Positions 27,804 through 47,600 of a DNA stretch of 64,000 bases are shown piece after piece; the stretch's first letter is position 1; each line of letters starts with the position of its first letter. Below the pieces are notes generated by a model. It worked only from the letters and a program-made list of their open reading frames with translations, was not told where the DNA came from and ran no database searches. Position numbers and translations under genes: made by a program. This stretch comes from an uncultured Methanosarcinales archaeon (GTDB taxonomy: Archaea; Nanobdellota; Nanobdellia; Woesearchaeales; CAYMBN01), in the NCBI GenBank assembly GCA_964388715.1, contig CAYMBN010000001.1:12962-76961 (forward strand), given 5' to 3'.

Positions 27804-30800
27804 TTAAACAGTTACACTTCCAGTTTGTTGATTATTGTCTTCATTTATTTCTTGGATTAAGTTATCATAATCAGCTGTCACAGTAACTGGGTAAGTTCCA
27901 CTTTCAGTAAATTTAACTAAAGTGTAAACAATTGTATCTTGACCAACTTCAACTGTTAATGGTTCTTTGTTAACTGGGTTATTACCCTCAGGGCCTGTGT
28001 CAATTATCCAGTTAACGTTTTCAGCTTTTTTATTTCCTTTATTTGAGATTATGAATTTAACAAACATATTAGTTCCTATTTTTCTTGCAGGTTCAAAGTT
28101 GCTAACTTCTAGATCTGGTAAAGGATTGACTGTGATTTTAATCCTTTCTGTATCACTAAATTGGTTGTCACTTACTGTGATTCTGAATTTGTGTGTACCA
28201 AAATCACCTGAATCTGTCTGCCAGGTGAATACATTGTCATTTTGTTCAAATCTTGAATCATCTATTGAATATTCAAGTTGATCTTTGTCAGGGTCTGATC
28301 CTTGAACAGTGATAATGATTTCATCTGTTTCAGTATATTCAATTTCATAATCAATTGAATCAATCTTTGGTCTGTGCAGGTTTTGATAATCACATGGATA
28401 AGTGTTGTTTTCTGGTGGATTATTATCATCTTCTAGGTCTGTTAATTCAAAACAATTGTTTATGTCATTATACCAACCATTGATTAAGTTATTTTCCATG
28501 CATCCTGTTTTTTCTTCAACCCATTCAGGAGCACAATAGTCACAGGAAAGTGCTTTGTAATCAGTAAATATTATATCATCAACTTCATCGCAGTTGTGTT
28601 CATCATATTGTGTTAAGGTTCTTATTTGTAATTGAGTATCATTGTTTAAACATTCTGTGTGATCTGACCATTCGCTCCAAGAAGTGTTTGAGAGTAATGG
28701 AGTACATGAATCACATGTTCTTGATTGTGTTTCATTTGCATGTGGGTTTTCTTCAGCACAATTGTAAATGTCATAATAATATTTTGTTCTTGTTTTTAAA
28801 TCATCTATGCACTCACTCCATTCTGTATAATCAAATTCCCAGTTAGGTGTACAATAATCACAAGGGATTGTTTGATAATCAGTGAATGTTAGATTGTCAA
28901 TTTCATTACAATTGTACTCATCATACTGTGTTAATGATTTTACTTGTTCTTTGGTGTTATCACTTTGACATTCAGTATGGTTGGACCATTCACTCCATGA
29001 TGTGTTTGTGAGTAATGGTGTACATGAATCACATTCTTGTGTTTGAGTTTCATTTTCATAAGGATTTTCTTCATCACAGATTTTTGCATCAAAGTAAAAT
29101 TTGGTTCTAGTTTCTAAATCATTTACACACTCACCCCAATCAGTATAATCTGGAAGCCAATCTGGAGTGCAAAAGTTACATGATATTGTTTGGTAATCAG
29201 TGAATGTAGTATTATCAATTTCATTGCATGTTTTTTCATCGTATTGAATTAGTGTTCTAATTTGTTGTTGAGTATCATCTGGTTGGCATTCTGTGTGATT
29301 AGACCATTCTGTCCAGGAAGTATTGGTTAGTAAAGGTGTACAATAGTCACATGTTTGGTTGATTACAGAAGTTGAATTGTACTTAATCTGTATCTCATAT
29401 AAATATAGGTTTCTTCCTGTTACAAAAGACCTTCCATAAATATCAATAGCTAAATCTGAATTATAGGAAATGCATTCTTGTGGTATCTTAATGTCAGTGA
29501 GACTATTAACACTTGAGGTAAACTCTTTAAATGTTGTAAAGGAATTAGTATCATAACTGAAACAATTGAATTTTAATTCTACATTACCCCATGAGCCTAT
29601 TACTTTATGTTGAAGTATAACACCATCTTCAAATTGTGGTAAATAAGAATAATTTACATAAATATGTCCTGATCTTGGCCAACCAGTTGATCCGTCTAAG
29701 TTTGAGTAAGTTGATAAATCACTATCAAATGCTCTTTCATAGTGGGACCATTGTCCAACTTCAATTATACTTTTTTCATTATTAGATTCAACTAACTCTG
29801 TAAATTCTTCACCACATCCCTTAGTGTCATAATAATTTTTAAATTGAATATCAGTTGGTTCACATTCTGTCCAGGTTTCATTCAAAACCCAGTGAGGTGT
29901 GCAGTAATCGCATGCTTGTTTTTGTGTAATATTATTATGTGGGTTAGGTTCTTCGCAATTATTTGAATCATAATAATATCTTATTCTTGATTTAGTATCG
30001 TCTGGTTGACAGTCTGTCCATTCTGTGTAATTAACTTCCCAATTGGGTATGCAAAAGTCACAAGTTACTGTTTGATAATCTTCAAATGTTGTATTTTGGA
30101 TTTCATTACATGTTTTCTCGTCATATTGGGTTAAGGTTCTGACTTGTTGTTGAGTATCATTTGGTTGACATTCTGTGTTGTTGGACCATTCGCTCCATGT
30201 GGTATTGGTTAGTTGTGGTGTGCAATAATCACAAGTTTGATTTATTTGGGTGAAAATTGGTATTTCAGTATGCCACCATATTGCTTCTTCATAAAAGACC
30301 ATTGCAGATGGATTTAAACACATCCATCTATTACCTCCATAAGTACACCCAGTGTTATAATCATTGTCGTACATTTTAGTAGGAGAACTATATCCTGTAC
30401 CTCCGCAAGAAGTTCCTTTAGTTCCTGCGCCCAAATTTTTCCAACCTGTTTTTGTGAGGCATTGGGGTTGGATTCTAAAGGCAGCACATACTCCAACTCT
30501 TAAAATTAAATGATCTTCATCATGATTGTAGCAATCTGAATTTGTATTAATGGAAATATTTTCAAATATTACATTGTCACTTCTATTTTGATATTTTAAC
30601 TGCCATTTTGCATCATAACCCTTCTTTTTTGTATAATTTACATAAAGGAAACCATTGAGCGGGTGGGCTTTGTCAGCTTGTTCTTGGAATAAAAGTACTT
30701 GTTCCATTGGTTCTTCTTCACAATTGTTAGTGTCATACCAATTAGTATATTGAATATCACCTAGTTCACATTCTGTCCAGGTTTCGTTCAAAATCCAATT

Positions 30801-33800
30801 AGGAGTACAGTAATCGCAAGATATTGTTTGGTAATCAGTGAATGTAACATTGTTAACTTCATCACAGGTGTTTTTGTCATATTGCGTTAATGCTCTGACT
30901 TGCTCTTGAGTATCATCTGGTTGGCATTCTGTATTGTTGGACCATTCGCTCCATGAAGTGTTGGTTAGTTGTGGTGTACAGAAGTCACAAGTTACTGTTT
31001 GGTAATCAGTGAAAGTAACATTGTCTACTTCTTTACAAGTATTCTCGTCATACTGAGTTCTTGTTCTACTTTGCATTTGATTATCATTGACTGAACATTC
31101 TGTATCATTTATCCATTCACTCCAGGATGTATTTGTTAGTAATGGTGTGCAGAAATCACATTTGTAAGTATTGTTTTCTGGAAGTTGATCTGATTCTAGA
31201 TTGGTTGTTTCATAACAATTGTTATTGTCTGTGTAAAATTCAATTATTTCATCTGAAACTAAGCAAGATGTGTTATGTGCTACAAAGTCTGGAATACAAT
31301 GGTCACAACTTATTGTAAGGTTATCCATGAATCCTTCAAGGTCTGATTCAAGTTGTGTTTGTGCATGACAATTGTTTTCATCTAATAAATATAATGTGTA
31401 ATTATCTCGGATACTACATTTTGTTTGATGTTCAATCCAGTTTGGTGAACAATAATCGCATTCATAAGTATTGTTTTCTGGTAATGAATCACTTACAAGT
31501 TGAGTTTGTGAATAACAATTGTTATTATCTGTATAGTATTCAATGATTTCATCTGAAGGTGAACATGATGTGTTATGAGCTACAATATCTGGTGTACAAC
31601 AATCATAAAAGATGATTTCAGTTTCATTTGCATGAGGATTTTCTTCTGCACAGTTGTTTGTATCATAATAATATTTTATTCTTGTTTTTAAGTCAGCTTG
31701 GCAGTCGCTCCATTCTGTGTAATTAACTTGCCAATCTGCTACACAAACATCATTAACAGTAACAATCATATATTCATAGGTTTTGGCTTTGTTTTCATCT
31801 TCTGCAATAAAAGTAATATTGTATTTTCCAGCATCATCATAGCCAGGAGTAAAATATAAAGCATAACTATTTTCACCTATTTTGTTTTGAGTAATCCAAT
31901 TAGGAAGATTTTCATAGGAAAGATTAACTTTATCTCCATCTTTATCTGAAACTTGGAATGATATAAGTGTCCCTCCTTGACTTTCATTTAATTCTATATT
32001 GGAAATGGCGGTTATCTCAGGAGGCCTGTTTATATTGTTTACAGTTATAGTGGCAACTTTCTCATCGCTTCCACCTTTACCATCTTCTGCAATAAAGGTG
32101 ATTGGGTAAACTCCTGCTTGGTCAAAATTAGGGGTCCAACTAAATTCACAATAAGTGCCTTGGGTTACTGGGTCATAATGTAAAATACTACAATCAAGTT
32201 CAGCACCTTGTGGTAAGGTTTCAGATGAGTTTAGTTTAACTCTGCTTCCTTCTGGGTCTAATGCTAATATATGGAATGAAACTTTTTTGCCTTCGTCAAC
32301 TTGAGTGTCATCAATATCGTCTATAAAAGGCGCATAGTTAAGCACTTTTAATATAAGGTTGTCATATGTTGGTCCTGGTTGTGAATGTAACCAACCACCA
32401 AGTAATATTTCAGATGTTTCGAATTGAGTATCATTTGTATCTATATCTAAAACAATTGTGTCATCATAATATGCTTTGTAATTACCGTCTCTAAATACAA
32501 GTTTATAATAATGCCAATCTTTATCTCCGTTTAAGTCTGTTTTATATCTGTTATTGTTAACTACTAATAATAAATCATTGTGACCGTTCCATGCTTTACA
32601 ATAATCAGCACCATAACTTAGTGTTTCATTTCCAGATTGGTTTTTGAATCTTACTGTTGCACCTCTACAATCTAATTTGTTTAGGTTTGCATAAAAGCCA
32701 ACTTCAAAGTAATTTGTATTAAGGTTCATTGGTTTGCTTAATCTAGGACTACAGAAACCACAGGTTGGAGTTAAATGATTATCTATAACATCCCAAGTGC
32801 CAACTTTTTTTGTCCAATCATCAATAGAGTCGTCATTAAAATTATCACAGAGTTCATATTCTCCTTCACAATTTTCTTCAGGTATACTTTCTATTACAAC
32901 TATTTTTATTGGACTTGAGGCACTGTATGTACCATCACTTACTGTAACTTCAATATCATATTCACCTGCATCATCGTAATTTGTTTGCCAGATAAATGTT
33001 GAACTGTGGGATTGGAATCTATCGTCGTTAATTGAATAATTTAGATCATCTTCATCTGGATCAGATGCTTCTACTGTGATTATTATTTCATCACCTTCAT
33101 TATATTCTTCTTGATAATTAATTGAATTAATGGTTGGTGCATGTAAGGATTCATAATCGCATTCATAGGTGTTGTTTTCTGGGAGTTGATCTGATTCTAA
33201 ATTAGTTGTTTCATGACAATTATTATTGTCAGTATAATATCCAATAATTTCGTTTGATGTTAAACAAGACGTATTATGTTGAATTGGGTCAGGTATGCAA
33301 TAGTCGCACTGTTCCATTTCTGTAACATTGTCATGAGGATTTGGTTCTTCACAAGTGTTTAAGTCATAATGGAATTGTATTCTTGATTTAGTATCATCTG
33401 ATTGACAATCTGTCCATTCTGTGTGATCTATCTGCCAGTCTGGAGTACAGAAGTCACAGAAGATTGTTTGATAATCTGTGAAGGTAGTATTGTCCACTTC
33501 GTTGCAGGTATTTTCATCGTATTGGGTTAGTGATCTTACTTGTTCTTGAGTGTCATTTGGTTGACATTCTGTATGATTAGACCATTCAGTCCAAGAAGTG
33601 TTTGTTAGTAAAGGTGTACAATAGTCACAGGAGATGGTTCTGTAATCAGTAAATGTTGCATTGTCAACCTCATTGCAGGTGTTTTCATCGTATTGAGTTA
33701 ATGTTCTTGTTTGCTCTTGTGTATCATCAGCTAAACATTCTGTACCATTTATCCATTCACTCCATGAAGTGTTTATTAGAGACGGTGTACAATAATCGCA

Positions 33801-36800
33801 CCAAGCAGTTGTGTCTTCTGGTTTATTACAATCTGAAAGTAAGCTTGTTTGTTCACAACATAAGTTAATATATTCATAAGTTACATCATAGTAATCATCT
33901 GGATGGCAAGTTGAATTTTCGTTTCTCCAAGTTGAGTTACAATAATTACATTCAATTGTTTGATTGTTTGTTTGGTTTTCTAAGTCTGATGCTAGATTTG
34001 TTTGTGCATGACAAGTGTTTTCATCTAAATAATATTCTATATAATTATCCAGTGTTGAACAGTCTGTTTCGTGTTTGATCCAGTTAGGTGTACAATAATC
34101 ACATTGTTCTATTTCTGTAACATTGTCATGAGGATTTGGTTCTTCACAAGTGTTTAAGTCATAATGATATTGTATTCTTGATTTAGTGTCATCTGATTGA
34201 CAATCTGTCCATTCTGTGTGATCTATCCGCCAGTCTGGAGTGCAGAAGTCACAGAAGATTGTTTGGTGATCTGTGAATGTTGTATTGTCTACTTCATTGC
34301 ATGTATTTTCGTCGTATTGTGTTAGTGTTCTTGCTTGTTGTTGAGTGTCATTTGCTAAGCAATCTGTGTTGTTTATCCATTCTGACCATGATGTGTTTGT
34401 TAATTGTGGTGTACAATAATCGCAGGACTGGTTGATTATTGGTGATGATATTTGTTTTTCCCACCATACTCCTGATTCATATAATTTAGCAGAACTATCA
34501 AGACCTCTTGCTAGAGCAAGGAATCTTTCAAATAAGTTTTGCCATCCACCTGAATTATAATTAAAACATTGAGCTTCAAATTCCACATATTCTTCATCTA
34601 TTATTATCAAAGGATCTGTATAGTCTACAAAGAATCTTAATTGTAAAATGCTACTATTTAAACAACCAGATGGGATAGATGCATTGGTAAAATGCTCTTG
34701 ATCCATTACATCTGAATCAAAGTGTATCTTATATTGTACTTTAGCATCTTCTGTATTAAAAGGAATTGAATAATTAAAGAAGTATTCATAAGGTTCTTCC
34801 TGTACCATATTATCATAAGTTGACCAATCATTATCACATGCTTGATCACAATTATCTGAATATCCTATTTCTTGTTCTTGATAGTCCCATAATAAAGATG
34901 AAATGAATTCTTCTTCACACATGTTCAAATCATATACATTTCTGTATTGAATGTCAATTGGATCACATTCTGTCCATGTTTGGTTTAATCTCCAATCCGG
35001 AGTACAAAAGTCGCAAGATATTATTTGGTAATCAGTAATGGTAGTATTGTCTACTTCATCACAGTTGTTTTCATCATATTGTGTTAAAGTTCTGCTTTGT
35101 TCTTGGGTGTCATCAGATAAACAATCTGTATCATTTATCCATTCTGTCCATGAGGTGTTTGTTAGTTGTGGTGTACAGAAGTCACATTGTTCCACTTCTG
35201 TAACATTGTCATAGGGATTAGGTTCTTCACAAGTGTTTGAATCGTAATGGAATTGTATTCTTGATTTTGTATCTCCTGGTTGACAATCTGTCCATTGTGT
35301 GTAATTAATTGTCCAATTTGGTGCACAGGGATTAGGTATATGTTTTATTGATAAGTTAAATATTTCTAATTCTGTTGCTTCTTGAGATTCAATTGTTAAT
35401 GGAATTAAACAATATTTATTTTCGTCAGCTTCACAACTTTCTAATAAACTATTTAACTCATTGTTAAATTCAAGAACTTCTTGGTTGTCAAATATTGAAA
35501 TATCTTTTATTTTCTTATTTTCAAGATAAACTGAAAAATCGTAATATATTGGGCAACCTTCATCTATTTGATTATCACAATCATCATTAATACTATTACA
35601 AATTTCAGTGGCAGCTGGATTTACATTAGTATTAGCGTCATTACAATCAAGATTGTTTGAAACATAACCAGCAGGAGCATTACAAGCTTGTGTTGTTGTT
35701 GAGGAATCACCATATGTGTCTTCATCAGCATCCCTATAGAATGTTGATTGTACATTTTCATCTTCTTCACCATCACAATCATTATCTAAACCATCACAAA
35801 CTTCTTCTTCTGGACCTACTAAACCTTCACAAGTGCCCCATTGTCCATCAGTACATGTTTTTGTTCCGGTTTGACACTCTCCTACGTCAATACCACAGAC
35901 TTCAGTCTCACCATTAATACATTCACAACCACCATCTACTGATCCATCACAATTATCATCAATCCCATTACAAATTTCAGTTGCACCAGGATTTATATTT
36001 GCGTTGTTGTCGTTACAATCTTGATTATTTGAAACATAACCACTTGGTGCACTACAAGCTTGTTTTGTTGTTGAGGAATCTCCGTAGGAATCAGCGTCAG
36101 CATCTCTATAAAATGTTGATTGTACACCTTCATCAGTGCTTCCATCGCAATCATCATCTTTGTTATTACATACTTCTCCTGCATTAGGATTAATATTTCT
36201 GTCAGTATCATCACAGTCATCAGCTTTGCAGATATCAAAGTAATCTCCGTCATACAAATCTTCATCTTGATCACATCTATCTAAACTAGAATCAATTCTA
36301 TAACCACAAGCATCATCTCCAACAGGGATGTAAGTTTTAAGATAATAATATAAAACACCTTCCCGTGCTTCAAATTCTATTTTCTCTTGTTCTGTTCCTG
36401 AGTTATGTGATTCTCCGATAGGCTCACTCGCTGAACATGAATCATAAAGTTCAATATCATAATTTGTATCACATCCTTCCATATTATTTCCAATGAATAA
36501 ACCCATACCATTTTCATTTGCGAAAATTTTATGCCAAGCCATACCTACACTTACAGGCCAACTAGCTCCAAAAGTTTTTTCAGAAGCACTTGAACAAGTA
36601 TCTCCTTGAGTAACAAAACTTTCTGTTACGTAATCTGGATCTTTCCTTAATGCAAAACTACTATTTACAGTTAAAGAATATTTTGGCATTTTGAAATAAA
36701 CAGTATTGTTTCCTGCTTCATTATAAGTTAAAACTTTTGATGTTGTTCCATCTGTAAAGGTTGATAATTCTATATTACAGTCTAGTGAACAGGTTGTGTA

Positions 36801-39800: not shown

Positions 39801-42800
39801 TTCTCTGCATTCCCATGTTGTCCAGTCTCCTCTTGCATCACAAATATTTCCTTCACCACAGTCTTCATTACGAATGCATCTTACTGAATACTTTGTTCTC
39901 ATATCTGTTGAGCCATATCCTTGTTGTAAACAAGATGTACAATCATCTACTCCATAATTTTTATCATAGGCAAAAAATAAATAGTTTGTGAATGATGTTG
40001 GTGGTTCAAATAATGTGATTTCTCCATTACTTATTTCTTCTGCATCATATTTTACACAATCGTCTTCTCTACATTTCATTCCATCGCCAGAACCTTCAAC
40101 AAGACAATTTAGTTTTTGGTTGCAATTATCCCAACAATCTTTAACAAGGAAAAGGTTATCTCCTCTATCCATTCTTACAGTTGTTGTTAATGGACCGATT
40201 ATACATACAGAAGGTTCATTGTTGACAGTGCAAATTCTTGCAGGTAGATTAAATGTTGAACCTTGCATTTTTGTTCTTGCTTCTGCAGTGCATTCATCAT
40301 GTTCAAAAGTAGCTTCTGAACACCAATCATAACCTGAGTCTGGTGTACAATCCGAAGTAGTTGGTTCATTTGACATTGTGCTAAAGTCTGTTAAACATGT
40401 GCTTGGTAAAGTATTCCCCATTGCACCATAATCTAAACTAAGTGATCCAAAATTAGTTGTTTCAAAAAGTTCTGATAATGTTGCTTTCCATGTAAAAGTA
40501 TTTTCATTTTTTTCAAATCGTGAATCATTGATATAATATGAAAGAGTATCATTTTCAGGGTCTGTTGCATTGACTGTTATTGTGACTAGTTCTCCTTCAT
40601 TTACAAGATGTTGTTGTTGTACTTGAACAACTGGTTCTTGGTTTGTATTACACTCTTTTTGTTCTTCTGGTTTACCTTCATCTGTTAAACATTCGTTTAA
40701 GTCTGTACAGGTTCTTGTTTGTGAACTGTTTGTACAGTCTGACCAGTTTCCACAGGTCCAGTCAGGGTCACAAGCTGGTGGATCTGGCATTGTTTGTGGA
40801 AAGATTGTTAAATCGTGTAATTCAGTATCATTATCGTGTTCGTAGTCTGCAATGACTTTTATTGAATAACTATCTGCACTAATATCTAGTGGCCAGGTTA
40901 TATTGAATTGATGTTCTCCTGGTATTGTTTCTTGTTCTGAATCAGAAGAAATTGCCCATAATAATTTGCCTTCATAATATCTTTTTGGAGTGTTTCTTCC
41001 ATCTGTTACCATAGTAAAGCCACCTTCTGCTTTAATCCATTCATCATTACTCATATATTCTGTTGGACATTCAACAAAGTTTTCAAACATTCCAAATGTC
41101 ATCATGCAACCTTGATCATTCCATGCTAATAATTTTGTTCTTAGTTGTAAAGTTGATTCTGATGTGTTTACCTCAGGCAATGAGCATGAGAATGTTAATT
41201 GGTCTGATGTTTTTATTGTCCAGTTGATTTCAGTTGAATCTTGAGGCATTGTATAATTTTCATATATGTAATAATATGCAGTGCATCCTGGGCCAGGATA
41301 GGAAGCAGTGTAAGCAGAAGTGTTCCAATCATTATCTGATGCTTTATCACAATCCACAATCATATTGTTTGATGTAGGAGTACAGCTGTAGCTCTGTGCT
41401 GAATCTTCTTCAAACCATTCTGAATCATAATTAGTTGTTGCAGCTGGGACCTGTACTTGACTGGTTGAGTAATTGCCAATTAATTCTTGGTTATCAAGTA
41501 GTTGTAGCTTGATAGATGTGTTTAATGGTTGATCATAGTAATTTGAAAATGTTACTGAGATATCTAAAGGTGTTTGTTCTGTTATATTATTAGTGAAATT
41601 AACTTGTTTGATGATTGCTATTATTTGTTTTAATACAGTTAGGGTTATGATTTTAGAATCATTAAGTTCACTGTCACTTGCGCTGACTGTTATGTTGTAT
41701 TCACCAGCATCACCGATTTGTGTGATCCATTCAAACCAGTTATCACCAATCTTGTTGAAGTTTGAGTTTGATACGTTGTAAGTTAAGTTATCTCCGTCGA
41801 TATCTTCAGCATAAAGTAGTAAAGAAGCTACATCTTCTTCAGTGATTGTGATGTTTTGTACTGATTCTAATTCTGGTTTAAAGTTTCCTTTGATGATGTA
41901 TACCTTGATTTTTCTTTCAACAGTTGCTATGCCATCTGAGGCAGTGATTGTGATATTATGTTCTCCAATATCATCTTCTGATGCAACCCAAGGTGAGTCT
42001 TGTGCACCATCTATGTTAATATCAACTTGATCGTTATCAAGGTCAGTAGCACTAATGTTAAGGTCAATTGTATCGCCTACTCTTGCATAGATATTTTCAG
42101 CTGTAATAAATGGTTTATGATTTGTTACAATGATGTCAGAAAGTATTTTTCTTTGATTTAGATATTCAACATAAACTACTAATTCATAGTTCTGGGTTTG
42201 TTTTAGTAGATTGTCTACGACAAACTCAATTGTGTTTTCTCCTGGATTAAGAGTTGTTTCCTGTTTGTAAAATTCTCCGTTTTCAACTGTTTCTGCTGTG
42301 ATATTAACAAGGAGGTTTTGGTCTAAATGGTTTGATAAGTGAAGTTGGGTGGTTACTTGATTATTATTGTAATCTCCAACTAATATTTGTGCTTCTAGAA
42401 CTTTAACTTCCATGCTGAATGTTGCTTCAGTTAAGGTTACATTAGGATTATTATCTTCTTTTTTGCTAACATTGTATTCTATTTTGTAGTTATAATTTCC
42501 TTCTTTCTGAGGAGTTGTAATTGTTATTTCATAATTATCTAATTCTTCTTTAATATCTTTCTGATATACTATTTCTTGGTTTCTTGTTAAAGTTAATGTT
42601 CCGTTAACTGTTTCTTCACTCACATATTCAAAATCAAAATAAAGTGGAAGTTCTTTGTTTGGTGGAACTATTTTATCAATTGTAATATTATCAAAGTAAA
42701 ATGGTGAGGAAGGCATGTATTCAATTGAATAACTTGTAGTGTTAAACAATGTGAAATTACCTTGGTCACAATCATCAATTCTTAGAGGATAAAGATAAAC

Positions 42801-44087
42801 AACAACTTCATCATAATTATCTCTTTCATATATTTCTTTTATAACTGTAGAATTTTCAAATGAATCATAACAGTTTCTGTCTGTAAAATTTCCATCAGCC
42901 ATTGAAGGATAATCATCAAGGTTAATTGGAGTTGAATCTGAAAGAGAATATTCAATGTTTTTAACAATGCTTCCTTTTGGTAATTTGTGTTTTCTTATGG
43001 TGTATATGTTGATAATGTTTGGATTATCATAGTCATAAGAAAAGTCTGTTGAATTAATTAATCTAAAGGTTTTATTGCTAGTGTTTGAGTTTCTTACATT
43101 TGCAATGTTATAATCAAAGTTGAGTGTGTTTTCGAATTTTAGGTTTTCGTCGGATTGAATACTAAATCCTTGATAATTATAGTCTGCTGGAGAAACATAA
43201 TATTCTTTACATGGATTAAACCACTCATCCAAGTCCCACCAACCATGCCCTTTTTTAATGTATTCACTGTAAGCGTCAGGAACATTGACTCTGGTTAATG
43301 GATTTCCGTATAATGAGTAGGATTTTAAGACTAAGCCTGGCATGTTCTGGTCGTCTGGGTCTGTTGTTGTGTAATATTTTGATCGTGATCTTCTATAAAT
43401 ATCTCCAATTCTTTCTTGTTGGTCTAGATTACATAAAAGTGCTGTCATAAATTCAGATGATCTTACATCTTTTGGAGCGACAATTGTTGAATATCTTGTT
43501 AATTCACTAACATAACTTGGTTCATGTGGTAGTGCGAGTCCGCCCATTTCAATGTTCATTAAAAATAATGGGTTTGTTTCTGCGAATTTGTCTTTCCATT
43601 CTTTGACATTTTCTGGATAAATTTTGTCTGATTTAGTAATTTTTTTAGCATATATTCCAAAATCATCACTATCCATGTAAGATTCTAAGACAAATAATTC
43701 GTTTGGTTGGAATTTATTGATTTCATTGGTTATGGAATCATAACCACCTGTCCATTTTTTTGGTTTGTCCCAGAATTTTAGGTAAGACCATCTTGATCCT
43801 TCTGGAATATCGCCTTTGATGTTGTAATTATCTTCATCAAATCCTGCAACAATCATCTTGTTGCTAGTGAAATCTTCTAAGAAAGGCAATCTACTTGCTA
43901 AGTGTGTTGCGTGATGGATGTCAATTTGTTTTGTATCCAATTGATTGATTAAATCGTATGGTGAATCACCAACTAATCTTGAGATTGATGAATCTTCTTT
44001 AACAGTACCAGAAGTTCTTACTGCAGAGACTGTACTTATAATTAGTAAGATGATGATGCACATTCCTGTTATTATTTTTTTATTCAT
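27804..44087 (-). CDS. giant secreted Cys-rich modular surface protein (5427 aa), adhesin-like
   Basis: An uninterrupted 16.3-kb ORF with an N-terminal signal peptide ([22 protein letters not shown]). It carries cadherin/Ig-like modules (e.g. [20 protein letters not shown]), three LamG/ConA-like jelly-roll modules, a Cys-rich NNCGxCGxxC region, three MopE-like CDDxDxxINPxAxExCNxxDDDCDG repeats, a tandem array of more than 25 disulfide-type modules (WSEWS...[10 protein letters not shown], CTPDW.....TKSRI.[15 protein letters not shown]), and a C-terminal CARDB domain. It has very many NxS/T sequons. Confidence 0.85.
   Translation of the reverse strand: [5427 protein letters not shown]
27807..28130 (-). 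other. CARDB-like C-terminal domain of the 5427-aa protein
   Basis: [34 protein letters not shown].....[21 protein letters not shown] matches the CARDB pattern. Confidence 0.6.
28550..37300 (-). repeat. intragenic tandem array of related 50-65-aa Cys-rich modules, with near-identical stretches at the nucleotide level
   Basis: The reverse complement of TSWSEWS (ccattc[ga]ctccatga-type) recurs at roughly 28.67, 28.99, 29.30, 30.20, 30.94, 31.11, 33.59, 33.76, 34.38, 35.14 and 37.25 kb. At least 11 copies of ...[22 protein letters not shown].C and at least 8 copies of CTPDW....TKSRI.[15 protein letters not shown] were counted. Confidence 0.8.
35550..36320 (-). repeat. three MopE-like putative metal-binding repeats (CDDxDxxINPxAxExCNxxDDDCDGxxDEG)
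   Basis: [60 protein letters not shown] and [30 protein letters not shown]. Boundaries are approximate. Confidence 0.6.
39280..39830 (-). repeat. EGF-like Cys-rich region with three NNCGxCGxxC units
   Basis: [20 protein letters not shown] and [10 protein letters not shown] within a roughly 180-aa Cys-dense stretch. Boundaries are approximate. Confidence 0.5.
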
Positions 44088-44638
44088 ATTATCCAGTTTT
44101 TCCTCTTTTCCTTAACTTCTTGTAAGCTAAGTATTTCTGATTCAGGAACATTTTTTAGATCCATTAATTTATCATAAAGAGCTTTGATCTCTGGATCTGT
44201 TGATCTTTTATCAAGGTCTTTGTGTTTAAGTTTCAAGAGTTCGTAAGTTATGATGAATATTCTAAAGAATTGTTCTTTGATTTTCTTAATAAAATCTTGT
44301 TTGGAAATGTTGTAATCTAGTTTTCCTTCTTTGTTAGGGATCATTAGCTCTTTGTCTAATATTAATTTGTCTAAGAAGATTTTACCTTTAAGATCATATA
44401 AGAAATTGACTACTGCTTCTTCAATAGGAATATTTTCGTATTTTTTATAATTCTCTTTAATTAATTCAAATATTGTCTTTATGACCCAGGACCATTGCGC
44501 AAAGAAATTCCTATGATTAAAAAATTCATAACAAATTTCATGTTTGCAAAAATTTCTTAGGTATTTGCTTTCTTTTACTATTGTTATTGCTGGATGATGT
44601 TCTTTCCTTTCCATTTTTATATTAAAACTTTCATTCAT
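44084..44638 (-). CDS. hypothetical cytoplasmic protein (184 aa) between the two giant genes
   Basis: Lys-rich ORF with no signal peptide. It starts 10 nt after the 2792-aa gene stop, and its own stop overlaps the 5427-aa gene start by 4 nt (ATGA). Confidence 0.5.
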   Translation of the reverse strand: MNESFNIKMERKEHHPAITIVKESKYLRNFCKHEICYEFFNHRNFFAQWSWVIKTIFELIKENYKKYENIPIEEAVVNFLYDLKGKIFLDKLILDKELMIPNKEGKLDYNISKQDFIKKIKEQFFRIFIITYELLKLKHKDLDKRSTDPEIKALYDKLMDLKNVPESEILSLQEVKEKRKNWII

Positions 44639-44648
44639 TTAGTGCACC

Positions 44649-47600
44649 TCATACAAATATTGATAATAATTCGTCTGTATATCTTATTATTCTGTCAACT
44701 ACACTTGATTGTGCTACGTCATCAGCAATATCTAATAATCCACTTGCCCGATGGTATTCATCTGCTAAATTGCTGATAGCTGCTCCTTTAACACCTTTTC
44801 TTTTTATTATTCCCATGAATTTTTTATATACTCCAGGATTATGCCCTTTTGCCTGTGCTAATAAATTAGCTGTTCTATCTGGTAATACGGCAGGGTTGTC
44901 AATCAATGTTTCAAAATGAACTTTAGGATATGGAAGATTGTCAACATCAGATAAAACATGACCTGCAATGTGTTTTTTTGCAACGCTCTCTGTTAAAAAT
45001 TCTTCAAATTCTAATGGTAACTGTGATCTAACTTCTACAGGCAACTTTTGATTAATAAAATTGTGAGCAAATTCATGATTAATTACATTTTCTAGAACTT
45101 CTTTTGGATTAGCATTTTTTGAAACATAAATAATTTGTTCTTCAGCGTCAAGTCTGGCAGGAATTCCTTCTGGTAGATTATCAACAAATTCAATCTTCTT
45201 GATCTTTTTAGCTGCGTCATCTAGTGGGAGAGAGTTGTCTGCTTGTCCAATTGTTTTGATTAATTTCTTTTGCTGGACAGCATCATAAGTATCTGGAACT
45301 TGTTTTAGGAAATCATCAATACTACCATAAGCTTTTTTAATTTGAACGATTCCATCATCAAGATGCTTTAATTCATCTAAACTATCGCTTACCTTTACAG
45401 TAGCTTCTAAAGCATCGTCTGCATATTTGAGTGTATCATCGCTGAACTTTGCTAATTCTTCAATATCAGCTTTTTTCCAAGTCTCTGTTGTTTTATCCAT
45501 AATCTTTAATAACTTACTAGATGAATCTCCTTTCTTACTAGCTATCTTTGCTATGCTTTCTAGGACGTCATCACCTGCACTAGCGTGTTTCTTGACAACA
45601 CTTCCAATTGCATCTAATAGTTCGTCATTGTTTGTTAAGGCTGCTCTTTTGATGTTGGATTTCATAAAGACTTTTGTGAATGGTTTTATGAAATCGTCGT
45701 CAGCTATTTTTCCTGCCGAGTCAATGTTCTGTGCAATGACTTTAATGAATTGTGGATATTTTGCTTTTGGAACTTTAGTAAGAACACTTGCAGCATCACC
45801 TGATTTTACAGTGAATGATGTGGCTGCTCTTCTGTATAATGCGATTTCATCAGCACTTCCTGCCATTGTATCAACTGTTTTCATGAACTTGGCAACCCTG
45901 ATCTTACCTACTGCTTTACCTACACCATAAGAAGCAATTGGTGCTAATGTTAAACCACATTCAACAACCTCCATTGTGCCATTAGGAAGTCTGCCTCTTC
46001 TTACATAACATGTATCGATTGCATCTATTCCTGAAACTACCAAGTCTGTTATAAGAACTGCTTTTACAACTGCAGCACCACCGAGGTAGCCTGCACTTGC
46101 ACCAAAACTGATTGGGATTAAAGCTATTGATACTGCAGTAATAGTGTCGTGGAAAAGCATGTAACCTCTTCCATGGAGACTTTCATAAGTTCCATTTGGT
46201 AGGATTTCATCTGCAAAGCCATTGATTGTTTTTGGATTGTTTGTATTGAAAATGATTGCAGCACTGTCACCGTTCCAAACACTTGGTTCAATAGAGATAA
46301 CATCTTCAAACTCGCCTGTTGTGTACATTGGGTAACAGTTTAGAGCAGGGTTTGTTTCTTTTGTTCCAATAATAATTGGTACGTCTAGTGCATCGAATAA
46401 CCACCAATCTCCAAAGAGATTGAAATCATTACAATTAAGTTCACTACCTTGGATTTCACTGAAATATTCTTTTTTGTCAACTAATTTTTCTGCTACTAAT
46501 TTATTTTTGAAATTTTCAATTGCACTTCGCATTTCAGAAGTTACTGTGTTAGGAAGAATTATTTTTACTTCATTACCTCTTGTTGCTTCGTCATGTCTGA
46601 ATAATTCGTCTATGTTTGAGAAATCATATTCCATGTTTCTTTGTACCATGCTTTGGTCAGTGTACATGTTTTTGATGACAATATCGTCTGGCAATAATTT
46701 ACCAGGATCTGGGAAAGTCATGTCACTTAGTTCAGGACTAACTTGATCATAGAGTTGTTTCATAGGGCCTAATCCACTTATATAATAGAGATATTTTGCA
46801 TTAGACTTGATTGTGTTGTACCAAGGTCTTAACCAAGCAGGAAGTGAACCTGCTCTTATTGAATAAATTTCTCTACTGTGTGGAATAACATAATCATCTC
46901 CAACTAAAACTACATTACCTGCAAAACTTAATTGGTCTTGAATAAACTTGGTTACTTCTTGTGCATAAGAATTATCATTCATCTTTGGGAATAATCTGTC
47001 TTCAGAATATTCACTAAAAGGTATGTCAAAAGGATGTGTGTTATTATATTCATCTAAATGTTGAAATTGTAGATCTAAATCATGGACAACACCATAGTTT
47101 GCTGCTGCTTCTTCATAAACCTTGGTTAATAATAATTTGACTGCTTTTTCATCATTATAACGTCTTAATAGTTGTTTTTTGTTTGTGATATAAGCAATAA
47201 CTGGATCTTGTCCAATTGTATAGATTCTTTGTGAATCTTTGCCAAAAGTAAAAAGGTATGTTTTACTTGGTAATGAATTTACATAGAAATAACATTTATT
47301 ATCACCTTGATTATAATTTTGGTTTAAGCATGCATCTCCTTCAATTAATTCAAAGTTTGTTTCATCATATTCAAGTTGTGTGTCAGGGTCAACATAACCA
47401 TTGATTTTTACATTAACTCCCATAATAGTATGTTGTTGTTTGTTAAGTGTTATTCCTGGAGGTGCATCGTCTATTACAAGATCATAATTTCCAATATTAA
47501 CACAAGCTTCTTGATCAGCCATACATATTTGTTTTCTTGTGCAACCTGTGACATACATCCAATCTTTGTATTTTTCTTGTTGTTCACATCTGTATAATGC

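Follow-up and report, generated by a model that had tools for sequence, protein, structure and literature searches.

We analysed a stretch of 64,000 nucleotides (nt; hereafter the window) from an uncultured archaeon placed in the Woesearchaeales (GenBank assembly GCA_964388715.1, contig CAYMBN010000001.1, positions 12,962 to 76,961). It encodes a protein of 2792 amino acids (aa) with a Peptidase_S8 domain, hereafter the S8 giant, followed by a 184-aa open reading frame (ORF) and by a second giant gene. The S8 giant is probably an archaeal polymorphic toxin, with a zincin-like metallopeptidase as its C-terminal tip and the 184-aa ORF as its candidate immunity protein. This reading follows from a layout of the kind described for polymorphic toxins (PMC3482391): a constant stem with variable tips, a variable partner slot behind the tip, and orphan tip cassettes in the related locus L001.

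A constant stem with variable tips

Relatives were collected by an exhaustive phmmer search of 1.84 billion representative sequences with a 513-aa tail query, which returned eight matches (P0001–P0008), the longest of 2501 aa. A word-indexed search with the tail found no homologue, an indexed search with the alignment of the HExxH tip retrieved only two known members, and scans with the same alignment recovered only the known Woesearchaeota contig from the genome collection and nothing from the metagenomes. Four of the matches, P0001–P0004 (2008–2501 aa), are giants of the same build and match the first 265–336 residues of the query. Three of these four contain a Peptidase_S8 domain, and in P0002 the S8 peptidase is a separate 998-aa gene immediately upstream. 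P0005, P0006 and P0008 match the HExxH part only, and P0007 (117 aa) matches only the surroundings of the Cys loop described below.

In blastp comparisons, the window giant resembles P0001–P0004 across the S8 domain and again from about residue 1530–1714 onward. The similarity then stops at residue 2543 (P0001), 2556 (P0002), 2566 (P0004) or about 2615 (P0003), and the C-termini past this breakpoint (140–576 aa) are mutually unrelated. At the level of these alignments, a shared stem that ends at a sharp breakpoint and bears unrelated tips is the pattern that defines a polymorphic toxin, and it shows that tips are swapped by recombination at the pre-toxin junction.

The tips also recur on other stems. 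The HExxH tip is found in P0005, P0006 and P0008 at 27–33% identity, on a different and shorter stem in P0005 and P0008, and a distant version ends the giant of locus L013 (hhalign probability 91.6%, E-value 8e-7, HExxH aligned to HExxH). The window tail, too, is a composite: after the pre-toxin region come a short linker, the motif 'IKTIGQAD', which relatives with the shorter stem carry ahead of their tips, and then the HExxH domain. Four other tips share the pattern Glu ... Asp-x(10-13)-Glu-x-Lys, which is typical of PD-(D/E)xK nucleases.

Archaeal marker genes lie beside related loci, namely Ribosomal_L21e and Rpb4 in L002 and a diphthamide synthase in L006, and one relative is labelled Candidatus Woesearchaeota. 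The markers and this label place the family in DPANN-type archaea, at a GC content of about 32%. Conflict genes occur near some of the related giants: in L009 (5437–9394), DarT, an ADP-ribosylglycohydrolase and Fic are encoded upstream of the S8 giant, and the L007 contig (1–1271) encodes a 2069-aa protein of the Rhs/TcdB/SpvB type. The neighbours of the window giant are housekeeping genes, which do not by themselves decide the domain of life.

A variable partner slot behind the tip

Behind every giant comes a small ORF (100–356 aa), beginning either at the stop codon of the giant or shortly past it, and the ORFs scanned for hydropathy have no membrane segment (sizes in Table 1). In an all-against-all BLAST of these ORFs, the ones from L013 and L015 left out, they proved mutually unrelated with one exception. 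The partners that follow three HExxH tips (207 aa in L001, 356 aa in L002 and 193 aa in L003) are related to each other (27% identity over 195 aa, E-value 4e-13); all three are helical and end in a zinc ribbon. The HExxH tip of L013 also precedes a zinc-ribbon ORF, whose kinship to the other three is not shown. The small ORFs differ where the tips differ, and they are related after three related HExxH tips. Apart from a generic tetratricopeptide repeat (TPR) in one partner, no tip or partner matches a catalogued Tox or Imm family of Pfam.

In the window, this slot is filled by the 184-aa ORF, which begins 10 nt past the stop of the S8 giant, with a Shine-Dalgarno-like GAGGTG overlapping that stop; its own stop overlaps the start of the second giant gene (ATGA). 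Its hydropathy over 19 residues peaks at 0.95, indicating no membrane segment, and it has no signal peptide. A reading of the DNA made earlier from its letters alone (the sequence-only reading) had described a small cytoplasmic ORF immediately after the giant, and we agree. That reading had also looked to synteny of this ORF at other loci, and here we found none: only the slot is conserved. In database and profile searches the 184-aa ORF has no homologue except copies from its own strain, and a remote kinship with the zinc-ribbon partners was considered and rejected, as both BLAST and hhalign were negative. Its position, its coupling to the neighbouring genes and the missing membrane segment nominate it as a candidate immunity protein.

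The GC content of the 184-aa ORF is 26–28%, compared with 31–36% in its flanks, which hints at an accessory or acquired gene; we judged this difference too weak to use. A second copy of the zinc-ribbon C-terminus lies in L002 (3071–3217), about 750 nt downstream of the 356-aa partner and 63% identical to residues 303–351 of that protein, and may be a remnant of another cassette. Small hydrophobic proteins of 126–265 aa, probably multi-pass membrane proteins with 24–35% mutual identity, adjoin the small ORF in some loci.

Orphan cassettes and a second giant gene

The related locus L001 (GCA_016192995.1, 524–12656) contains an array of spare tips. Its 2295-aa S8 giant is followed by a 198-aa ORF, a 572-aa HExxH cassette with its 207-aa zinc-ribbon ORF, and a 536-aa nuclease-like cassette with a 242-aa ORF. 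Both cassettes are built alike: a signal-like N-terminus of their own leads into the end of the mid domain, the hydrophobic stretch, the Cys loop and a new tip, and a separate small ORF follows each. The main gene and the first cassette are linked by a direct repeat of 300 nt with 95% identity. Besides being stored as silent spares, the cassettes may be expressed as small stand-alone toxins.

On its far side, the slot is closed by a second giant gene. The N-terminal ~600 aa of its product (about 42288–44087) are conserved at 25–53% identity in all loci compared (L001, L006, L008, L009, L013, L015 and a fragment in L002) and have no Pfam match. Tip and small ORF, both variable, are thereby enclosed by two conserved frames, and the second giant is apparently the third component that such a locus requires. 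TATA-like TTTATAAA boxes are found 5' of the S8 gene, so that the S8 giant, the 184-aa ORF and the second giant look like one operon. An assembly artefact is excluded, because at least seven contigs, assembled independently from several samples, show these three genes in the same arrangement.

Within the extracellular repeats of the second giant, at about residues 2085–2143 of a 2898-aa stretch (window 27804–36500, minus strand), Pfam reports an Aca2/YdiL-like match (E-value 7.7e-9, above the curated cutoff). This is an odd site for an anti-CRISPR-associated family of helix-turn-helix type, and the match may be spurious.

Domain architecture and topology of the S8 giant

The S8 giant is built, from its N-terminus, of a signal or anchor segment, the S8 domain, Cys-rich repeats, a mid domain, a hydrophobic stretch, a Cys loop, a pre-toxin region and the HExxH tip. 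Residues 1–28 are strongly hydrophobic, with a Kyte-Doolittle value of 2.9 and an insertion energy of about -2.5 kcal/mol; this and all insertion energies below are position-independent sums on the Hessa scale and thus crude estimates. Export through this N-terminal signal, which is expected of a polymorphic toxin, is predicted from the sequence. Pfam places Peptidase_S8 at residues 208–472 (E-value 1.9e-55), and all of its catalytic motifs were found: DTG at residue 217, HGTH at 249 and GTSM at 422, corresponding to D217, H249 and S424. About 1,400 residues of Cys-rich repeats follow, and residues 29–1912 contain 101 Cys. The Cys-rich ectodomain is shorter than the approximately 2300 residues of the sequence-only reading and ends near residue 1912, where the Cys-poor mid domain begins (2 Cys only in residues 1913–2295). 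The second half of the mid domain, from about residue 2098, is retained in the orphan cassettes of the relatives. Its structural model recalls, with low confidence, an archaeal S-layer anchoring domain. Searches of Pfam, NCBIfam, PHROGs and PADLOC gave no credible match for the mid domain, the tail or the 184-aa ORF.

The hydrophobic stretch after the mid domain had been described as a membrane-spanning segment of roughly 40 residues. The segment is real and its 39 residues agree well with that estimate, but the evidence does not establish that it spans a membrane. Its Kyte-Doolittle value of 1.5–1.8 over 19 residues is borderline, and its best 19-residue window amounts to about +4.1 kcal/mol, against the favourable value of the N-terminal signal segment. 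The other family members range from +0.9 to +4.1 kcal/mol, with +6.0 for the 5'-truncated P0008. Lys or Arg and Asp residues occur inside the stretch among family members, and the aligned sequences show a net acidic C-side flank in most homologues. These properties speak for a candidate element of membrane insertion or translocation more than for a firm stop-transfer anchor.

Directly after the stretch, all 11 family members carry a Cys-x(9-16)-Cys loop. Its two cysteines (C2340 and C2357 in the window) likely form a disulfide, and AlphaFold2 (AF2) models the loop as a beta-hairpin with low confidence. They are the only cysteines of the 458-aa tail that follows the stretch, and the remaining 435 residues (2358–2792) have none. 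The tail had previously been taken as 455 aa long and free of Cys, which applies from residue 2358 onward, whereas the two conserved cysteines before that point had been overlooked. Not a single Cys follows the loop in any of the 11 family tails, 4381 residues that include the unrelated tips; for comparison, Cys makes up 1.5% of the window's cytoplasmic proteins and 5.4% of the ectodomain. Such avoidance fits a tail that shares the oxidising exterior with the 101-Cys ectodomain, or that needs to unfold to cross a membrane, and it would be unexplained if the tail were a cytoplasmic domain. Together, the marginal hydrophobicity and the Cys-free tails make a tip that is exported and delivered likelier than one in the cytoplasm, as far as sequence can tell.

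The strongest competitor is a type-I membrane protein, held by a stop-transfer anchor, whose ectodomain would sense contact or damage and whose tips would act inside the producer, in signalling, self-processing or abortive suicide, with the small ORF as a cytoplasmic inhibitor or antitoxin. Exactly such a topology, with a cytoplasmic C-terminal enzyme domain, is predicted for the SPEARE giants of DPANN archaea (PMC6642349, PMC10266531). It would also agree with the hydropathy of the stretch, with the RRGR that follows it in the window copy and with the cytoplasmic nature of the small ORFs, and variable effector modules are typical of defence systems as well. Nevertheless, we regard it as unlikely: insertion energies are positive throughout the family, most homologues have an acidic flank where the anchor would end, and the conserved Cys pair comes directly after the stretch. 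Moreover, a reducing cytoplasm would not select for tails without Cys, orphan cassettes with homology tracts are a signature of polymorphic toxins, and PADLOC returned no match. The cytoplasmic tail that the sequence-only reading had offered as one option is thus the less favoured one.

The HExxH tip

Past the Cys loop, the tail opens with a helical region that we call pre-toxin; it closes with the motif W-x-K-x-x-L-E-x-L-x-x-F-x-D-D and is modelled with a predicted local distance difference test (pLDDT) score of 75–89. The tip beyond it carries the HEFAH motif and the LEFEEFLTES downstream exactly where they had been reported, and the HExxH is conserved in homologues. Shuffling the tail produces a single HExxH in only 0.9% of cases, and shuffling the whole protein does so in 5%. 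In an alignment of four sequences, H, E and H of the motif and the E-F-L-T-E located 21–25 residues downstream in the window copy are invariant (H92, E93, H96 and E117/E121 in the numbering of alignment A1).

AF2 modelled the tip from these four sequences with a pLDDT of 78 and a predicted template modelling score of 0.76. Three strands (52–77) precede the HExxH helix (82–102), and the next helix (114–127) carries the glutamates. H2651, E2652 and H2655 thereby fall in the predicted active-site helix and E2676/E2680 of EFLTE in the following one. In this model, an HExxH helix after a beta-sheet, with a candidate third-ligand Glu on the next helix, matches the layout of zincins and gluzincins, which is in line with the metalloprotease-like fold anticipated for the tail. 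The best Foldseek match is the minigluzincin selecase (probability 0.94, E-value 0.15). Fold-search scores are modest, with Z below 8 throughout and similar Z for unrelated helical proteins, and we therefore call the tip zincin-like with moderate confidence.

The tip falls outside the defined peptidase and Tox-MPTase families, with no match in Pfam, NCBIfam or PHROG even at permissive thresholds (Pfam E-value up to 5). A PDB profile search with the HExxH tip gave nothing below an E-value of 0.78, and PDB sequence searches with the tail and with the nuclease-like tip profile gave no significant match. The pattern 'HExxH ... F[DE]' in the tip recalls the Tox-MPTase3 signature of PMC3482391, for which Pfam reports no match.

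The HExxH domain could alternatively be a peptidase for maturation or release, or a lytic enzyme working outside the cell, with the giant itself or the envelope of a host or a competing cell as its substrate; the 184-aa ORF would then encode a chaperone or an unrelated small protein. Metallopeptidase domains of polymorphic toxins often act as releasing peptidases (PMC3482391), a second protease, S8, is already present within the giant, and the partners of the other HExxH tips have nothing in common with the 184-aa ORF. We find this improbable, since a releasing peptidase is expected upstream of its cargo, and the HExxH domain sits at the extreme C-terminus with no cargo after it, in the position that unrelated, nuclease-like tips take in relatives. 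A zinc-ribbon ORF, moreover, follows four of the five HExxH-type tips, as in toxin-immunity pairs, and the three of these ORFs scanned for hydropathy have no membrane segment.

That the tail is a fast-evolving extension under low constraint, with an incidental HExxH and a spurious 184-aa ORF, is scarcely credible: although no database family matches either of them, HExxH and EFLTE are invariant at an overall identity of 27–33%, the tip model is confident, an open frame of 184 codons at 32% GC would arise by chance with a probability of roughly 5e-7 (a composition estimate from a stop frequency of about 0.076 per codon), and the ORF is tightly coupled to both neighbours in a slot that is filled in every related locus.

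Proposed mechanism and its weak points

If the S8 giant is an archaeal polymorphic toxin, its N-terminal signal would export it and its Cys-rich, adhesin-like repeats would present it on the cell. Its constant delivery module would comprise the alpha/beta mid domain, the marginally hydrophobic stretch, the Cys-stapled loop and the helical pre-toxin region, and the variable part would be a tip of about 230 aa, here a zincin-like HExxH+E metallopeptidase and in relatives unrelated tips. The in-cis S8 domain, as the likely releasing protease, or another protease may cut the tip-bearing fragment loose. The hydrophobic and helical module would then help this fragment through the membrane of a target cell, where the metallopeptidase would damage a cytoplasmic target. 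In the producer, the 184-aa cytoplasmic protein, encoded in the same operon, would bind and neutralise the window tip. We propose release by S8 and translocation on precedent, namely in-cis subtilisin domains (PMC3482391) and S8-dependent activation in S. aureus (PMC13556192).

Several points weigh against this picture. The sequence-only reading had already raised the possibility of a delivered effector tip with the 184-aa protein as its partner; the comparative data fit it, although the 184-aa ORF has no homologue and co-variation of tip and partner fails for this very pair, as the ORF is unrelated to the partners of other HExxH tips. The 64-kb window contains no orphan cassette that tblastn with the constant region could detect. 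The nuclease-like nature of other tips is a motif-level suggestion on which Pfam and PDB searches are silent. The topology argument relies on the crude hydrophobicity sum. The AF2 model of residues 1913–2565 is poor overall (pLDDT 57), with values below 35 in the hydrophobic region, where it is uninformative and leaves the packing unsettled. With about a dozen loci, the family is tiny, and few independent lineages underlie all statistics. Finally, toxicity, immunity, cleavage and delivery are predictions for all family members.

A bolder idea, which we hold tentatively and think rather unlikely to be correct, is that the constant module, kept by every member and cassette, is a self-contained delivery device independent of secretion systems. 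A DPANN episymbiont could in that case insert into the membrane of its host or of a rival archaeon and move interchangeable enzymes, a metallopeptidase or nucleases, across it, with S8 as the release trigger. If true, this would constitute a new archaeal mechanism of effector translocation.

Table 1 Features of the window locus and of related loci (residue numbers refer to the S8 giant).
Feature	Position	Strand	Basis or remark
S8 giant, 2792 aa	44649..53027	-	ORF translation
Conserved Cys-poor mid domain, aa 1913-2295	46143..47291	-	Alignment; motifs GDDYV[IV]PH and NCYP invariant
Hydrophobic stretch, 39 residues, Gly/Ala/Ser-rich, aa 2296-2334	46026..46142	-	Hydropathy; internal Lys and Asp
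Conserved Cys pair and loop, C2340...C2357	45957..46010	-	Found in all 11 family members
Helical pre-toxin region, about aa 2358-2545	45393..45956	-	Common to P0001-P0004 at 29-44% identity
Variable C-terminal tip, HExxH zincin-like, about aa 2560-2792	44652..45350	-	Alignment, fold model
HEFAH (HExxH zinc-binding motif), aa 2651-2655	45063..45077	-	LEFEEFLTES downstream
184-aa ORF, candidate cognate immunity protein	44084..44638	-	Variable slot between two giants
Second giant, 5427 aa	27804..44087	-	Ig/PKD/CARDB/MopE-type repeats after N-terminal ~600 aa
Small ORF after the giant			Window 184 aa; L007 221 aa; L008 145 aa; L001 198 aa; L006 241 aa (+ 126-aa membrane protein); L015 285 aa (+ 130-aa membrane protein); L009 169 aa (TPR); L013 100 aa (four CxxC pairs)
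Small membrane proteins	L006 17671-18051; L015 8306-8698; L001 14307-15510		Family absent from window slot

Comparison with known systems

The fold of the tip invites comparison with the minigluzincins (selecase, proabylysin and projannalysin), with Wss1/SprT and with Tox-MPTase1–5, from all of which it differs by about 100 additional aa that form a helical bundle at its C-terminus. In colicin-type bacteriocins and in the diphtheria toxin with its T-domain, binding, translocation and catalytic domains follow each other in this order, and a weakly hydrophobic helical segment adjoins amphipathic helices. The translocated part is poor in Cys, and a cytoplasmic immunity protein is encoded directly downstream in colicin-type systems. 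The window giant has a similar domain order; no homology to these proteins was detected, and its targets would be archaeal envelopes.

The sequence-only reading had held that neither of its two architectures was standard for subtilases. This was overstated, as subtilisin-bearing toxins, S8-type polymorphic toxin systems (S8-PTS) and SPEARE proteins have already been described (PMC3482391, PMC9424270, PMC13556192, PMC6642349). In the S8-PTS of Gram-positive bacteria, S8 was proposed to cleave and activate a secreted toxin (Li, Tan & Zhang 2022, PMC9424270), and S8-dependent activation was shown by experiment for S8-Ntox35 of S. aureus (PMC13556192). The same survey noted that toxins of one fold may have immunity proteins of different folds (PMC9424270). 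Whereas S8-PTS consist of a separate secreted S8 and a small BetaH-domain toxin, the window has S8 fused N-terminally in a 2792-aa archaeal protein. We identified no BetaH domain in the window giant, in searches that included no profile aimed at it. With S8 in cis and archaeal context genes in L002 and L006, we do not count the family among the S8-PTS.

SPEARE proteins of the Nanohaloarchaeota (Hamm et al. 2019, PMC6642349) are giants with many adhesion domains, a C-proximal membrane segment and a C-terminal domain, and proteomics found their C-terminal part in a separate size fraction, hinting at processing. That domain, originally annotated as 'type III restriction', was later reinterpreted by La Cono et al. 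(2023, PMC10266531) as an ATPase of VirB4/TraG type with a predicted cytoplasmic location. Like them, the window giant is a DPANN surface protein with a hydrophobic segment near its C-terminus and a C-terminal enzymatic domain. However, the C-terminal part is the most conserved one in SPEARE and the most variable one in the window family, with HExxH or nuclease-like tips and small partner genes. The tail was considered as a SPEARE C-terminal domain and this was set aside, given its variability and the lack of any ATPase or type IV secretion system family in it. None of the eight phmmer matches is a SPEARE-like protein of 4,000–8,500 aa, and we set the family apart from SPEARE by description.

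The closest counterparts are the polymorphic toxins exported by the Sec pathway. Zhang, de Souza, Anantharaman, Iyer & Aravind (2012, PMC3482391) counted subtilisin as one of the proteases that process such toxins in cis and HExxH metallopeptidases as one kind of toxin tip, and found classical polymorphic toxin systems to be rare in archaea. Polymorphic toxins are well studied in bacteria, which use them in warfare between cells. Archaeal systems have been predicted and not characterised experimentally (PMC8416519). In the literature we checked, polymorphic toxins are tied to Woesearchaeota in passing mentions only, the survey of Makarova et al. 2019 lying outside that check. As in the Sec-exported toxins, a signal peptide is followed by a long adhesin or repeat region, a pre-toxin region and a homologue-specific tip, with a candidate immunity gene directly downstream and spare cassettes of tip and partner in a relative. 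Unlike them, the window family belongs to a DPANN-type host, its constant module has no counterpart among the catalogued trafficking and pre-toxin domains, and the locus ends in a conserved second giant gene.

The family is rare among the roughly 15 billion predicted proteins covered, and its parts are clearly bounded. It supplies new domain families, namely the HExxH tip, the zinc-ribbon partners and the unclassified pre-toxin module, and it turns toxicity of the tip, immunity by the partner, S8-dependent release and topology of the tail into directly testable hypotheses. How DPANN archaea use giant surface proteins on host cells is an open question on which the window locus bears. The kind of system is known, and what sets this one apart is its DPANN host, the in-cis S8, the unclassified constant module and tip, and the second giant.

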